Shown: positions 1,360-6,898, numbered from the stretch's first letter. The stretch: DNA of 33,453 nt from an uncultured Bacilli bacterium (GCA_947589165.1 CANQCH010000002.1:1-33453), one strand, 5' to 3'. The notes: generated by a model from the letters alone, not told the origin. Made by a program: numbers and translations.

Positions 1360-3615
1360 CTAATTTAGTTTATCAAAATACATTTTAGGAACTAAATAAT
1401 TAGAAGTCATAAAATTAAGTGGTATTAGTAAGTTATTCTTATCATTAGATATTTTTTGATCCGTATGATTATCATCGGAAGCATCTATATAATTGATTTT
1501 ATAAACATCACCATTAGTCGTATTAATTGTAACAATATATTCCGTATCTTCATATATATTCGATAATGTGGTATAGCTATCACTAATTTCTCTTGATGTT
1601 TTTATTTGCCCCGTTACAGCATTTTGCAAAGTGATAGTTCCTTCTTTAATGGATTTATATCCTTTGTCAACTTCAGGATTTATATATCTTGGATATATTT
1701 CTAAATCATAAGCTTTTTTATCAGTAAAGGTTAGTTTTTTATAAACAATATCATAATCTAATTTACTTTCTTCTGTATTAGTAATATTTTTACCATCTAA
1801 ATAGATTTTATATTCTTTTTGGGGAATCGCTTTACTATGTCCTGAATCAACAGTAATGATATCGCCATCGGCAAAAACTAAATATACCAGCATATTTGTC
1901 GTAGTTGAAGCAGCATCTTGGATGGTATCAATTTTAAGTGAATTATAATCACCAAATAATTCTAAGATTGTTTCCAATGTATGATACGAAAAGCCAAGAT
2001 TTTCATAATTGTATTTTTCATTAATATCATCCCAATATTCATTAACTTTATTTAAAGGGTCTTTTTCAATCCACATACTAATGGATTCTTCAATTGAACT
2101 GGCTTCAGGTCTTTGAAATTCCGCAATTGATTCTATTTTTTTATTATTGGCTTGAGCTGATAGCATTTCTCCTTCAATATTATTGGTCATGGATTTTTTA
2201 TAATAATTCATGATACTTAATTTATCACAATTGGCAATCATCTTATTAAAGGCATTTTTTACTCTTTGTTCATCCTCTTCTTTAGTTAAAGAATTATCAT
2301 CAACTAAAGAAGTATCATACCAATAAGGAATAACATTAACTAATTCGATATTTTTTTCTTTAGCATATGTATATGCTTCCGCAAAAGTATCTATATAAAT
2401 TTCAAAAACCCCAATTTTATCATTTGCAAAATCGGCTAAAGCATGGGGTTCTGTATCCATCACAATACCTTTAATTGTTGCTTCCGGATGAGCTAAGTTA
2501 TAATTTGCTACTAAATCAATGGAGTTTTTAAATTTTTCTAGTTTATTATACCAAGTTGGATCACCATCAAGTAGATAAGTATTGATATGATTAGTTTGTA
2601 ATTTTTGGACAATGCGAACCGCTTCTCCACTCGTTAATTCTTCATCTTTAAAGGCATGATAAACTTCGGTAATATTTAATTGTTGTAAACGTTTAATTGT
2701 ATTATCAATATTATTAATTGTAAATGGTGTATTTTGCCAACTATAAACAGAATAATTAGCATATTTTTCTTTTTGAATTATTACTTTACCACTTAAATTC
2801 TTACCAGTATTTAAATTTTGATCGGTATCTAGATTTTTAAAATACACTTTAATTTCCCAATTATGTGTCGTTGTATCATTTTCCTTACTTCCACCCGTAA
2901 CTTGAATTTTTTGCCCTACTTTTACTTTGATTAAACCATTTGCCTCCGTAATATCAAAGCCACCTATTTTTTCTTCACCCATAGTAATGGCATCTTCATA
3001 ATATGTTAAAGCTTGGTCATTAATGGAAACATCACTTGTTACAATGCCATCTGGTCCTTTAATACTTAAATATAGTTCGGGGATAGGTTTGTATTCATCT
3101 AACTCATTTTTACTTAGCGCTGCTTTTTTTTCATTATCACTAAGATATATTTTTGGTTCCGCACCATCTTTATTATAACTAGAATATTGTAATTCATTTT
3201 GGTTTATTAAAATATAGACATTATAGGTATATTCTTCCGTTTCATAATAGGTATTATTAGCTTTTAACATAACTGTAGCACTTACCCCATCACCTTGATG
3301 ATTACCTTGTTGATTAAAATTTGCCATATTCGCATTAATGTTAATGGTTACATCATCATTATTATCATCTATTCCTTTATTAAGGACGCTACCATCTTCG
3401 CCAGTTATTTTAGCTTCCGTAATATTCATATCATCTAAAGCGAAAGTCAAATTATCAGTTGTTCCAGTTGTGATATTAATATCCGTATTAGTGCCGGCGC
3501 CAACTTGAGCTTGAAAATAGGCATAAGCCGCTCCAATAAAGACAATTATAAAAAAAAGAAAGCCCATAACAAGTAAAAATGTGGTTTTGGTTTTAGAAGA
3601 AAATTTTTGCTTCAT
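1360..3615 (-). CDS. Gene E: signal-anchored secreted multidomain protein. N-terminal beta-rich module, central TIM-barrel glycoside-hydrolase-like region, beta-rich C-terminus.
   Basis: 751-aa ORF with AGAGGT RBS 6 nt before the ATG. The N-terminus is K-rich, then hydrophobic (FLLVMGFLFFIIVFIGAAYAYFQAQ), resembling the SipW-cognate/TasA-camelysin type signal (G-x-x-A-x-F-x-D/Q). The central segment alternates strand and helix, with GIVMDTEP (D-x-E after a beta strand) and PYWYD, reminiscent of GH18-like/GHL barrels. The domain calls are inference. Confidence 0.6.
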   Translation of the reverse strand: MKQKFSSKTKTTFLLVMGFLFFIIVFIGAAYAYFQAQVGAGTNTDINITTGTTDNLTFALDDMNITEAKITGEDGSVLNKGIDDNNDDVTININANMANFNQQGNHQGDGVSATVMLKANNTYYETEEYTYNVYILINQNELQYSSYNKDGAEPKIYLSDNEKKAALSKNELDEYKPIPELYLSIKGPDGIVTSDVSINDQALTYYEDAITMGEEKIGGFDITEANGLIKVKVGQKIQVTGGSKENDTTTHNWEIKVYFKNLDTDQNLNTGKNLSGKVIIQKEKYANYSVYSWQNTPFTINNIDNTIKRLQQLNITEVYHAFKDEELTSGEAVRIVQKLQTNHINTYLLDGDPTWYNKLEKFKNSIDLVANYNLAHPEATIKGIVMDTEPHALADFANDKIGVFEIYIDTFAEAYTYAKEKNIELVNVIPYWYDTSLVDDNSLTKEEDEQRVKNAFNKMIANCDKLSIMNYYKKSMTNNIEGEMLSAQANNKKIESIAEFQRPEASSIEESISMWIEKDPLNKVNEYWDDINEKYNYENLGFSYHTLETILELFGDYNSLKIDTIQDAASTTTNMLVYLVFADGDIITVDSGHSKAIPQKEYKIYLDGKNITNTEESKLDYDIVYKKLTFTDKKAYDLEIYPRYINPEVDKGYKSIKEGTITLQNAVTGQIKTSREISDSYTTLSNIYEDTEYIVTINTTNGDVYKINYIDASDDNHTDQKISNDKNNLLIPLNFMTSNYLVPKMYFDKLN

Positions 3616-3717: not shown

Positions 3718-5787
3718 TTAACTAACTAAATCTACTTTAATATGACCATTAAAGTTCTTACCTTGGTCTTCATTTTGTTCTTTTCCGGTTCCATGCAAAG
3801 TTAAAGACACGGTATAACTTTGCGTCGTATGCGCAGGAATTGCTACTCTACTTTTAATTAACGCATCAGCTTTCGGTGCCGTTTGCCAAGGTTGATTAAA
3901 GCCGCCATTATCACTTACAACACGGTACCAGAAATTCGTACTGGTAAAGGTATTCGTGGTCACAACCCAATTAAGATCATAATACATCGTAACTTCAGTT
4001 GGATTTTGAATCGTAAATTTTAAATCCGGAATGGTCGTATTGAAACCTTCGCCTTGATCATCAGGAAAAATATTTTCGGAAATAACTTCATTTTGATTTT
4101 CAAAAGTAACAATTAAAGATGCTGTACCAATTCCGGTGCCTCCGTTACCTTCTTGTTCCACACTACCATTACCTTTATCAGGCGTTACAATTTCGGTACA
4201 GAAACGATCACAAATACCATCATTATTATCATCACAGTTAATATCACAAACACCATCAGCATCAGTATCAATATTTAAATCTGGGAAACCATCATCGTTT
4301 TTATCAATATTGATATCTGGTGTTCCATCACCATCCATATCTAAATTCGTATCAGGCCAGCCATCATTATCGACATCACAGTTTAAATCACATTTACCAT
4401 CGCCATCAGTATCTTGATCGGTTCGGTTAGTGATATTACCATTTTCATCTTCTTTATTAAAGGTTGGTTTCCGGTTACCATCATGGTCAACATTAATATC
4501 GGGTTTACCATCGCCATCGGTATCACAGTTAACATCACACTTCCCGTCACCATCAACGTCGACATTAAGTTGTTTATCATCTTGATTTTGGTTAAAAATA
4601 CAATTGCTATCACAAATGCCATCATTATTGTTATCGACGTTGACATCTGGTTTACCATCGCCATCAGTATCAATATTTAAATCTGGGGTCCCATCCCCGT
4701 TGGTATCAACATTTAAATCTGGTTTGCCATCACCATCCATATCTAAATTCGTGTCAGGCCAGCCATCTTTATCGACATCACAGTTTAAATCACATTTACC
4801 ATCATTGTTGCGATCTTGATTAGTTCTATTGGTAATATTACCATTTTCATCTTCTTTATTAAAGGTTGCTTCCCGGTTACCTTCATAATCTAAATTCGTA
4901 TCGGGAATACCATCGTCATTGGTATCACAGTTAATATCACACTTACCATCACCATTAGTATCGACATTTAATTCCCGTTTATTATCCGTATCCGTCGACG
5001 TACAATTATAATCGCATTTACCATCGCCATTATTATCGACGTTGACATCTGGCTTACCATCGCCATCGGTATCAAGGTTTAAATCAGGCGTCCCGTCACC
5101 ATTTCGGTCAACGTTAATATCCGGCGTGCCATTGCCATCTAAATCTAAATTGGTGTCGGGCCAACCATCATTATTAGTATCACAGTTTAAATCACATTTG
5201 CCATCATTATTTAAATCTTGATTTAACGGATTACGCACACTCCCATCTTTTTGTAAAACATTAAAAGTTTTTTGCCGATTGCCCCGATAATCAACATTTT
5301 TATCGGGTTTTTGATTCCCATTTTCATCACAGTTAATATCACAAACGCCATCGCCATCAGTATCAATATTTAAATCCGCAACGCCATCACCATTTAAATC
5401 AATATTTAATTTCATCGCGTTTAAATATTGAACCCCGGAATAAGTCGCGGCAATCCCCGCGAATAAAAAAGTAAACAAGAAAATTAAAAATAAACCCATG
5501 TTGCCTTTTTCCACAAAGTCAAATATTACTTTACTGCCATCTTTACTAACTTTTAAATTATAAGGTAAATATATTTCTTTATCTTTAACCTCAAAACATA
5601 AATTTAAAACTTTTTCGACATATTTAGGCACAATTTTTAATGTATCTTCATACATTTTACCTAAAATAGTTTCAATTTTTTGTTTTTGTTCTTGGGCATT
5701 TAAAAGCATGAAGTCTTTTAAGTTTAAAACTTCGCGATTAGCTAATATTTTTTTCTTTTTCTTTTCTTCTTTTACTTTTTTAGCCAT
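3718..5787 (-). CDS. Gene D: single-pass (N-in) membrane protein with an extracellular array of Cys-containing thrombospondin type 3-like Ca-binding repeats and a C-terminal beta-sandwich-like domain
   Basis: 689-aa ORF whose GAGGGT RBS overlaps the upstream TGA stop. Lys-rich N-terminus (MAKKVKEEKKKKK). One TM helix at aa 97-119 (5431-5499). I counted about 25 twelve-residue units N-x-D-x-(D/N)-x-D-G-x-x-D-x over aa 128-530, many carrying C-D-x-N-C. The last ~135 aa are beta-rich and end GKNFNGHIKVDLVS. Confidence 0.8.
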   Translation of the reverse strand: MAKKVKEEKKKKKILANREVLNLKDFMLLNAQEQKQKIETILGKMYEDTLKIVPKYVEKVLNLCFEVKDKEIYLPYNLKVSKDGSKVIFDFVEKGNMGLFLIFLFTFLFAGIAATYSGVQYLNAMKLNIDLNGDGVADLNIDTDGDGVCDINCDENGNQKPDKNVDYRGNRQKTFNVLQKDGSVRNPLNQDLNNDGKCDLNCDTNNDGWPDTNLDLDGNGTPDINVDRNGDGTPDLNLDTDGDGKPDVNVDNNGDGKCDYNCTSTDTDNKRELNVDTNGDGKCDINCDTNDDGIPDTNLDYEGNREATFNKEDENGNITNRTNQDRNNDGKCDLNCDVDKDGWPDTNLDMDGDGKPDLNVDTNGDGTPDLNIDTDGDGKPDVNVDNNNDGICDSNCIFNQNQDDKQLNVDVDGDGKCDVNCDTDGDGKPDINVDHDGNRKPTFNKEDENGNITNRTDQDTDGDGKCDLNCDVDNDGWPDTNLDMDGDGTPDINIDKNDDGFPDLNIDTDADGVCDINCDDNNDGICDRFCTEIVTPDKGNGSVEQEGNGGTGIGTASLIVTFENQNEVISENIFPDDQGEGFNTTIPDLKFTIQNPTEVTMYYDLNWVVTTNTFTSTNFWYRVVSDNGGFNQPWQTAPKADALIKSRVAIPAHTTQSYTVSLTLHGTGKEQNEDQGKNFNGHIKVDLVS
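4198..5406 (-). repeat. In-frame tandem repeat region inside gene D: 36-nt Ca-binding units nested in three ~402-bp super-repeats
   Basis: The anchor string GTTTAAATCACATTT recurs on the + strand at 4381, 4783 and 5185, an exact 402-bp period. The 52-nt stretch from ~4329 (caccatccatatctaaattcgt...) recurs from ~4731 with 3 mismatches. The protein super-repeats start DYRGNRQ, DYEGNRE and DHDGNRK. Confidence 0.85.
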
Positions 5788-5797
5788 TTTGCTACCC

Positions 5798-6898
5798 TCA
5801 CTTTAATAGTTCAAATGCTTTTTGTTTACAACTTTCATATTCACGGCCGAGTTTTTTAAATTCTTTAGCGATTTCCTTTTCTTTAGCCTTTTCAATAGTT
5901 AGATATTTTTTAATTTCTTTATTTACTAAAGCTTTAACATCTTTAATAGCTAAATTATCTTCTTTAAGAAGCTTAGTAATCACCATTCTTAAATCTAAAT
6001 CTTCCGCTACTTTTACTTTATCATATTTTTCATCTTTATTCAATTTAAGTGCTTCATTTTGCACAAAAAAGGCAAAATCATACGCTGCTTTTAATTCTTT
6101 TTCCCGATCTAAAGTCTCATCAGTTACTTCGGTCATCGGCTTAATATTATTGCTTTCCAAGTATTCCCATAACTCTAAAGCCTTAATAAAATTTTGCTCT
6201 TTTAAAATAACATTGGTTTTCCGAATGGGACTCCGTACCGGTTGGCTAGCTTGCAAACTTTTAATAAATTGACTGCCCATAAACGCGGCCAAAACATCCT
6301 TGATATGTTCAATACGGGTTTCCAAACTATGACCATCTTTTTTTTCTGGGGCCATTTCTTCGGTTTGTTTACTTTCGAGTTTTAAGGTAACATTAAGGGT
6401 TTCCTTGCCATTTTTGGTTGCCACTTCATAAGTTACCTGACTATCCGCATCGACATGGGATTTTTGATCGGATTCCGCCAATTTATTATTTACAAATTGG
6501 TAAAGGTTATCGACCAAGGATTTAATAAACCGGTTTTCGTATAAATCAACGGTTTCTTCCCGATAAACATTTAATAATTTTAAAGGGATAACGTTACCAT
6601 CTTCATCCACATCTTGAATTAAATTCGTATTTTGCGCTAAATGACGAATACTTTCTTCGGTTACCACTTTCGCTTTTTCAATTGGCACAATATTTTCTTC
6701 TTGTACAATAAAGCGCCGTGGATTACGAATAATATTATCCAAATACGGAATAGATTCTTCAATCATTTCAATCCATGAAGTATCACTAATTACTTTATGA
6801 ACTTTAGTCGTTGCCTTTAAATTACTCGGGTTGTTTTTCACAAATTGTTCGTATTCTTTTAAATCTAAAGATTTTATGAATTTTTCTAGTTCCATCAT
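5798..6898 (-). CDS. Gene C: McrC N-terminal/DUF2357-like partner protein with no recognisable PD-(D/E)xK nuclease domain; coiled-coil C-terminus
   Basis: 366-aa ORF starting 6 nt after the gene B stop, with an AAGAGG RBS. NPRRFIVQEE...IPIEKAKVV..ESIRHL, then TVDLYENRFIKSLV (ENRF at 6527-6538), then PIRKTNVIL...ALELWEYL. This matches my recollection of the DUF2357/McrC-N signature, including the ENRF motif. The remaining ~120 aa are Lys/Glu-rich helix with no D...(D/E)xK strand pattern. Confidence 0.55.
   Translation of the reverse strand: MMELEKFIKSLDLKEYEQFVKNNPSNLKATTKVHKVISDTSWIEMIEESIPYLDNIIRNPRRFIVQEENIVPIEKAKVVTEESIRHLAQNTNLIQDVDEDGNVIPLKLLNVYREETVDLYENRFIKSLVDNLYQFVNNKLAESDQKSHVDADSQVTYEVATKNGKETLNVTLKLESKQTEEMAPEKKDGHSLETRIEHIKDVLAAFMGSQFIKSLQASQPVRSPIRKTNVILKEQNFIKALELWEYLESNNIKPMTEVTDETLDREKELKAAYDFAFFVQNEALKLNKDEKYDKVKVAEDLDLRMVITKLLKEDNLAIKDVKALVNKEIKKYLTIEKAKEKEIAKEFKKLGREYESCKQKAFELLK

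Follow-up and report, generated by a model that had tools for sequence, protein, structure and literature searches.

Gene C of an uncultured Bacilli bacterium (positions 5798..6898, minus strand) encodes a McrC-like protein of 366 aa composed of a DUF2357 N-domain and a helical tail, and we conclude that it lacks a PD-(D/E)xK, HNH or other recognisable nuclease. The protein probably serves as the McrC homologue in a module of the CoCoPALM kind, a McrBC-type GTPase that is anchored in the membrane, has no nuclease and is coupled to a task in the cell envelope. McrBC is the textbook GTP-driven restriction motor, and in this family the McrC "plug" has been kept through hundreds of species without the nuclease, beside a membrane-anchored ring and genes for surface proteins. 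The carriers are gut bacteria with very small genomes (approximately 1 Mb), in which an 8-kb cassette is costly. The window analyzed here is the whole stretch of 33,453 nucleotides that contains the gene (GCA_947589165.1, CANQCH010000002.1:1-33453), and all genomic coordinates refer to it.

Gene C is an intact member of a tightly packed operon

Gene C occupies the third place in an operon of closely spaced minus-strand genes (A-B-C-D-E), with mutL, a YceD-like gene and rpmF lying upstream of the operon. In a consensus scan, which is the sole basis of the assignment, a strong promoter-like site was found only upstream of A (9513..9541, minus strand; TTGCAA-17-TATAAT with an extended TG), and a terminator-like hairpin of rpmF lies at 9595-9614. 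The first gene of the operon, A (8410..9486, minus strand), encodes a soluble protein of 358 aa to which no fold was assigned: it matched no Pfam family, its sole profile match in the PDB was an AI-designed TIM barrel, and it has no conserved residues of the catalytic type. An alignment of 45 sequences of the A family contained no invariant column, and only K13, Y20 and K165 were conserved at 90% or more. Gene B (6905..8434, minus strand) encodes an McrB-like GTPase. Its start is probably at 8410, which produces a protein of 501 aa and an overlap with the stop codon of A (TAATG), and its own stop codon lies 6 nt before C. For C, the second ATG (6895) is the likely start; it is preceded by GAGG 5 nt to its 5' side and gives the length of 365 aa that database cluster P0006 also has. 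Gene D (3718..5787, minus strand), which encodes a membrane protein with Asp-rich repeats of the Ca-binding type, starts 10 nt past the stop codon of C, and its ribosome binding site overlaps that codon. Gene E (1360..3615, minus strand) encodes a protein of 751 aa that is exported or membrane-anchored, with an N-terminal hydrophobic segment ending in AAYAYF. No match to a nuclease family was found in A, D or E.

The three peptides that the earlier note had quoted as McrC-like are all present in the translation of C (NPRRF...IRHL at amino acids 59-87, TVDLYENRFIKSLVDNL at 116-132 and PIRKTNVILKEQNFIKALELWEYL at 224-247). Two homology searches returned 1397 and 1482 homologues of C. Among relatives the identity is about 35-71%, and the length of the protein stays between 356 and 379 aa in 82 genome loci. 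Because the closest relatives are only approximately 70% identical, synonymous sites in C are saturated. In relatives of greater length (430-1500 aa), the N-domain is retained and the helical tail is longer, with repeated tail segments. Other fusions are rare among them; in one, cluster P0163, the N-domain is followed by AAA_15 and an OLD-type TOPRIM nuclease. With its 366 aa, C is shorter than many DUF2357 proteins and could be taken for a truncated, decaying McrC remnant without function. We give this reading next to no probability: the frame is intact and its length is held within that narrow range despite the divergence of the sequence, the homologues number more than 1,300 and contain strongly conserved blocks, and the translation of C is tightly coupled to that of B and D.

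The N-terminal part of C is a DUF2357 domain

The likeness of the N-terminal region of C to DUF2357/McrC, which the earlier note had based on short motifs, is borne out by a profile match: Pfam DUF2357 (PF09823) matched amino acids 25-152 with 49.4 bits (E=4.8e-13), the curated gathering cut-off of this family being 23.3 bits. The match covers positions 64-195 of the 251 in the profile, and the first 63 and last 56 positions are unmatched. A six-frame search of the whole 1.01-Mb genome identified C as the sole DUF2357 match (50.5 bits). DUF2357 is the N-terminal domain of McrC that binds and activates McrB (Bell et al. 2024, PMC11090510).

From the Pfam match and an AlphaFold2 model we delimited an N-terminal domain of amino acids 1-255 (6134..6898, minus strand). 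The model of this domain, calculated from an alignment of 118 sequences (pLDDT 90.8, pTM 0.71), contains four long helices (41-58, 120-142, 192-207 and 235-251), a long β-hairpin (63-72/107-116) with a loop-helix(81-89)-loop at its tip, and a second long β-hairpin (148-163/166-181). The finger domain of McrC has been described as a helical bundle, a long β-stalk and a loop-helix-loop tip (Niu et al., PMC7680126), and the predicted elements of C fit this description, the comparison being made on the published wording.

The most conserved stretch of C (amino acids 39-135; 6494..6784, minus strand) has a mean majority-residue frequency of 0.69 and includes NPRRF (59-63), the loop-helix(81-89)-loop and YENRF (120-124); we predict that this stretch contacts the ring of B. 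A second conserved stretch (amino acids 218-250; 6149..6247, minus strand) contains PVRSPIRKTNVILK...LWEYL and the basic columns 226, 227 and 233, and has a mean majority-residue frequency of 0.71; the values for the second hairpin and for the tail are 0.36 and 0.33, respectively. The residues of the first stretch that are invariant in an alignment of 46 family members are P60, E74, L87, P105, Y120, E121, N122 and L128, and the columns in which Arg and Lys exchange are 62, 77, 113, 123, 195, 226, 227 and 233.

We also compared C with McrC itself. Foldseek searches of the PDB with the N-domain model returned no McrC chain (best E=0.18), and nothing was obtained at E≤0.001 with either this model or that of the full-length protein (pLDDT 79.5). 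The top Foldseek matches were proteins with long hairpins or long helices (C9, TolC, kinesin) at TM<0.2, which we judged meaningless. Searches of PDB sequences by phmmer and by profile gave matches at chance level only, none of them McrC. When the C family was aligned by hhalign to a profile of 34 sequences of the E. coli-type McrC (PF10117), 28 columns were aligned with a non-significant E=0.084, and the single E. coli McrC sequence gave a non-significant E=0.35; the local match comprised 14-28 columns around YENRF/N-R-I-I. This non-significant alignment places YENRFI of C on the invariant N106-R-I108-I of E. coli-type McrC. Because Foldseek, the profile searches of PDB sequences and hhalign were all non-significant, the link of C to McrC rests on the Pfam DUF2357 match, the gene context and the literature.

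The C-terminal tail of C is helical and contains no recognisable nuclease

The tail of C (amino acids 256-366; 5801..6133, minus strand) is helical, rich in Lys and Glu, poorly conserved in sequence but conserved in helicity and tightly so in length, with 118-138 aa following W244 in 46 C homologues. The earlier note's description of a Lys/Glu-rich helical C-terminus agrees with the composition of the last 116 aa, which contain 20.7% Lys, 13.8% Glu and 1.8% Pro+Gly. AlphaFold2 predicts one strand (256-264) and helices at 266-286, 303-312 and 318-365, the last of 48 residues. A crude heptad score peaks in the tail at 0.6 (amino acids 337-364), and the coiled-coil state of the tail is a prediction.

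The same note had suggested that C appears to have lost the PD-(D/E)xK nuclease. Neither PD-(D/E)xK nor HNH nor any other nuclease was found in the C-terminal third by Pfam, by AlphaFold2 modelling followed by Foldseek against the PDB, or by analysis of conserved residues, and the whole protein had no nuclease match in Pfam, NCBIfam or PADLOC. The tail alone, searched against Pfam at E≤10, gave only a weak match to a helical syntaxin-like family, and the AlphaFold models contain no α/β nuclease core or mixed β-sheet. Triplets of the (D/E)xK form do occur in the tail (amino acids 268, 289, 320, 328 and 346), as its Lys/Glu-rich composition predicts, and none of them is conserved. The last invariant column of the family is W244, no column of the tail exceeds 72% in the 46-sequence alignment, and no conserved acidic, Lys or His column follows W244. 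Thus neither of the two outcomes named beforehand as speaking against a nuclease-less McrC relative occurred: the DUF2357 match is present and a C-terminal nuclease match is absent.

The absence of the nuclease stands, but a loss in C itself does not. No recognisable PD-(D/E)xK domain was found in the 82 genome loci or in 64 longer relatives, none of the longer ones having a PD-(D/E)xK domain of Pfam, and when DUF2357 proteins were sought in 300 genomes of the phylum, every match belonged to the nuclease-less family with a B-like neighbour. Because the relatives, including the longer ones, are all without PD-(D/E)xK, the nuclease-less state is ancient and clade-wide. Alternatively, the tail or the variable hairpin region of C could hide a divergent nuclease or be catalytic in some other way: distant nucleases may evade HMMs, and the P0163 fusion indicates that the DUF2357-type family can couple to nucleases. 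We nevertheless consider this very unlikely, since a tail modelled as one strand and three helices offers no mixed β-sheet core, Foldseek found no match at its threshold, the only Pfam resemblance of the tail is helical, and the columns after W244 provide no conserved acidic, Lys or His residue. Both the cryptic nuclease and the functionless remnant are essentially excluded.

Gene B encodes a McrB-like GTPase, the probable partner of C

The protein encoded by gene B matches E. coli McrB in BLASTP (E=7e-10), the NCBIfam McrB model (5.6e-8) and, over its AAA+ core, the PADLOC model PDC-M26A (E=2.7e-39). It begins with hydrophobic segments (amino acids ~14-45 and 59-86), followed by a basic stretch, a heptad-like EDLLIEEIENLNNEVLKLKRQNDKIAEL recognised by eye, and the AAA+ core; Pfam DivIC/FtsB gave no match in B at E≤10. 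Its NTPase motifs are near-invariant over the 82 loci (Walker A GISGTGKT in 76/82, Walker B DEMN in 79/82 and the sensor GTINNDDSTF in 78/82), which argues that hydrolysis matters. The NNDD of the sensor fits an "NxD plus D" pattern but can also be aligned gap-free to the NTAD of E. coli. In each of the 80 loci taken at species level, gene B adjoins C on its 5' side; of 29 additional loci from the whole class, 28 show this arrangement, and in the 29th the contig stops at the gene. Across species B is better conserved than C, with identities of 49-92% versus 35-71%.

In the solved McrBC complexes, the McrC finger traverses the McrB pore and its bundle wedges one interface (PMC7680126), inserting an Arg or Lys that repositions the sensor Asn of McrB (PMC7680126). 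Since the pore is blocked by the tip of the McrC finger, which touches each of the six McrB subunits (PMC7680126), C could instead be a static plug or assembly factor that nucleates or locks the B hexamer at the membrane, and maybe inhibits it, without stimulating hydrolysis, the tail serving only to oligomerise. The NNDD of B would be compatible with this, as an uncharacterised NxD variant for which altered regulation has been proposed (PMC11090510). Still, we regard a purely static role as quite improbable, because the bundle of C has the conserved R/K-exchangeable columns R195, R226, K227 and K233, as would be expected if a basic "finger" residue had been kept, and because the near-invariant NTPase motifs of B speak for hydrolysis.

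Genes for surface proteins accompany the cassette in relatives

In relatives, the genes located 3' of C nearly always encode products with N-terminal hydrophobic segments (membrane-anchored or secreted), and they occur in two arrangements. In the first, found in 58 loci, C homologues are followed by genes for D-type Ca-repeat proteins. In the second, found in 21 loci, they are followed by genes for two or three small proteins that carry [AS]Y[AS]WF after a hydrophobic segment, a motif with a background frequency of 18/583 ORFs. A description of these small proteins as TasA-like is unsupported beyond a resemblance of the signal motif, since Pfam and NCBIfam searches in three loci (L039, L085 and L057) detected no TasA/camelysin family.

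Signal peptidase genes were detected near the cassette in some of the relatives. In L085, a gene for a TIGR02228 archaeal/SipW-type signal peptidase I (80 bits, the NCBIfam cut-off being 51.85 bits) overlaps the end of the C homologue. Peptidase_S26 genes lie 1.4-3.6 kb downstream of the C homologue in 5/82 loci, a count obtained by jackhmmer with one Peptidase_S26 query, which missed the SipW-type peptidases that NCBIfam TIGR02228 recognised. Within the window, no signal peptidase gene lies beside the operon, and the two SipW-type (TIGR02228) genes of this genome are both on other contigs.

In common gut relatives the cassette is located inside the dcw cell-wall/division cluster, between mraZ-rsmH-ftsL-PBP2B and mraY-ftsW. 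It is accessory, because only 66/201 genomes of the order (42/98 genera) carry one; within the genus it was present in 11/11 sampled genomes, and some genomes carry two copies.

These data bear on the possibility that the operon defends against phages in the manner of the PADLOC candidate type PDC-M26, with C activating B when it senses infection and with A, D or E, instead of a nuclease, exerting a killing or abortive effect at the membrane. The strong PDC-M26A match of B is in favor of defence, as are the fact that McrBC relatives are typically defence systems (PMC11090510) and the patchy distribution with its occasional second copies. However, none of the PADLOC models matches C, no effector domain of a known kind, nuclease or otherwise, was found, and B is unusually conserved for a defence gene. 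The surroundings are moreover of a housekeeping kind (mutL-yceD-rpmF here and, in relatives, the dcw cluster), genes of mobile elements were not seen near the cassette, the partner genes encode surface proteins and, in relatives, signal peptidases, and PDC-M26 is itself only a candidate for which we found no paper. We thus consider defence unlikely as the function of the operon, although it remains a real rival to a role in the envelope.

C may act as the pore-plugging subunit of an envelope-directed GTPase

By homology and gene context, C is most likely a pore-plugging, GTPase-regulating subunit whose tail would couple the motor to an envelope task and not to DNA cleavage; its role as an activator is inferred from homology. 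One molecule of C would enter the central pore of the B hexamer via its long β-stalk, with the conserved tip at amino acids ~60-116, and its helical bundle would wedge against a single active site of B at any moment. GTP hydrolysis would be tuned by a conserved basic residue of C, candidates being R195, K77, R113 and R226/K227. In McrBC the nuclease of McrC sits atop the McrB ring, and weak density of the McrB N-domain is seen on the same face (PMC7680126). The ~110-aa tail of C may occupy the position of this nuclease, on the ring face that would also bear the N-termini of B, from which the chain would lead to the putative coiled coil and the membrane anchor. Because the tail would be placed on this face, we propose that it is a coupling or dimerisation element through which GTP-driven movement could be transmitted to the coiled coil of B, to protein A or to the cytoplasmic N-terminus of D. 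In this view the module would not cleave nucleic acid but would assemble, export or control the surface proteins encoded with it (D and E); in relatives, the putative output proteins carry a SipW-substrate-like signal motif.

A more far-reaching version of this mechanism, which we put forward tentatively as possible, is that the B hexamer, with its six anchors and heptad-like stretches, and the stalk of C make up a motor that is driven by GTP, moves by steps or by rotation and has the tail of C as its output shaft. Stepwise rotation of McrC inside the McrB ring has been proposed for McrBC (PMC7680126). The tail might then drive or gate the export, processing or polymerisation of surface proteins with SipW-substrate-like signals. 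If this were true, a restriction-enzyme motor would have been turned into an envelope-assembly machine with no nucleic-acid target.

The tip (amino acids 60-116), R195 and R226/K227 are the parts of C through which the function of CoCoPALM becomes testable; its exchangeable part is the tail, whose candidate partners are protein A, the N-terminus of D and the putative coiled coil of B. For annotation, a match to DUF2357 or McrB alone does not mean a restriction system.

Comparison with known systems

Canonical McrC is represented by the E. coli K-12 (PF10117) and Thermococcus gammatolerans proteins, and solved structures are described in PMC7680126 and PMC6624300. As in these systems, the gene for C lies immediately 3' of that for an McrB-type GTPase, R/K-exchangeable basic residues are conserved in the bundle, and an N-R-[FI]-I motif starts the main bundle helix, the alignment that equates this motif being non-significant. 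C differs from canonical McrC in having a ~110-aa helical tail where McrC has the PD-(D/E)xK nuclease, and in showing no significant profile match (E=0.084) or Foldseek fold match to solved McrC. B, unlike the McrB of canonical McrBC, is membrane-anchored and has no DNA-binding N-domain.

The CoCoNuT systems (CnuB/CnuC; PMC11090510) are similar to the module of C in that their McrC homologues often have a missing or inactivated nuclease and in that both their McrB and their McrC homologues carry fused coiled coils. Where a CoCoNuT has no McrC nuclease, adjacent genes for HEPN or other nucleases invariably make up for it (Bell et al., PMC11090510). By contrast, neither these nucleases nor the RNA-binding domains of CoCoNuTs were found in A, C, D or E, and B is anchored in the membrane. 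The resemblance to PADLOC PDC-M26 is confined to B, the only one of the five proteins with a PADLOC match at E≤1, and the PDC-M26A profile has 724 positions as opposed to the 509 aa of B. Our literature search on PDC-M26 retrieved no publication or functional data.

The closest description in the literature is that of CoCoPALM, a class named by Bell et al. 2024 in eLife in one paragraph and a figure supplement, with no experiments reported (PMC11090510). It is defined by an McrB homologue with a membrane segment and a coiled coil, a coiled-coil McrC homologue and signal-peptidase neighbours (PMC11090510). The McrB homologue has as a signature NxD, not NxxD, usually followed by D or E (PMC11090510), and its N-terminus is claimed to be homologous to FtsB (PMC11090510). 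The class was deferred by the authors to a later paper (PMC11090510), which we sought in the literature and did not find, and a search for DUF2357 together with membrane and McrB also yielded no paper. The operon described here differs from the definition in having no adjoining signal peptidase, the association with such genes being seen only in relatives, and in including the soluble protein A and the Ca-repeat membrane protein D; in addition, the FtsB homology of the N-terminus of B was not reproduced with Pfam DivIC at E≤10. As in CoCoPALM, B is an McrB-like GTPase in which a heptad-like, putatively coiled-coil stretch comes after an N-terminal transmembrane segment; the NNDD of its sensor may be read either as N-x-D plus a second D or, in a gap-free alignment, as NxxD. 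C likewise has the expected form of the McrC homologue, a DUF2357 domain with a helical, coiled-coil-like extension, the coiled-coil state being predicted. Altogether, the module of C fits the architecture of CoCoPALM and represents a newly found case of a kind that has been named but is uncharacterised.

Probable translation starts of B and C and a possible fold of gene A

The translation starts of B, the gene of the membrane-anchored McrB-like GTPase, and of C, which encodes the DUF2357/McrC-like protein, probably lie 3' of those in the longest open reading frames (window positions 8408-8434 and 6895-6898, respectively). Gene B likely starts at 8410, giving a product of 501 aa; this is the modal length of B among the relatives, and the ATG at 8410 overlaps the TAA stop codon of gene A. 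For gene C, the second ATG is the likely start, with a product of 365 aa, and the C protein of the database cluster P0006 is likewise 365 aa long.

The family of gene A (8410-9486) matched no Pfam family, and no residue was invariant across 45 homologues. The only match of the family profile was to an AI-designed TIM barrel (7mcd, E=3.3e-6) and comprised three stretches. This match hints that the C-terminal half of A adopts a repetitive beta-alpha fold. Elsewhere in the window (10260-12933), a YqeH-like GTPase gene is overlapped at its end by mutL, after which come a YceD-like gene and rpmF; mutS is absent within the window.

Operon subtypes, signal peptidases and genomic setting

A second operon subtype, which is without gene A, was found in relatives (for example at L039:9106-11906, L056:9098-11864 and L085:4704-7473). 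Here, B-C is followed by an optional SipW-type signal peptidase and by two or three proteins of approximately 190-390 aa. These carry a conserved SYAWF/AYAWM motif ([AS]Y[AS]WF proteins) past an N-terminal hydrophobic segment, and no Pfam or NCBIfam family was assigned to them. In the genome of the window itself, 2 archaeal/SipW-type signal peptidase I genes lie outside the window (contigs C8:19204-19680 and C12:2676-3107, loci L091 and L092). Both adjoin genes for large proteins that are secreted or located at the surface; a Thr/Pro-rich linker and Cys-rich repeats are present in one of these proteins.

Several genomes of approximately 1 Mb each contain two paralogous C genes (G021, G095, G103, G072, G081, G088, G126, G142 and G196), the whole cassette being presumably duplicated alongside C. 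In very prevalent gut relatives (L002-L004, L006-L007), the dcw cluster harbours the cassette 3' of PBP2B, and directly upstream of the cassette there are two small divergent genes, with products of 228-247 aa and 78-81 aa. One C protein of these relatives occurs in 1633 blocks of the collection.

Domain fusions in long relatives of C

Rare long relatives (protein clusters P0163 and P0174) share the DUF2357 N-domain with C. In these proteins, its fusion partner is either a YjbR domain or AAA_15 together with an OLD-type TOPRIM nuclease, and therefore the module can couple to quite different outputs.
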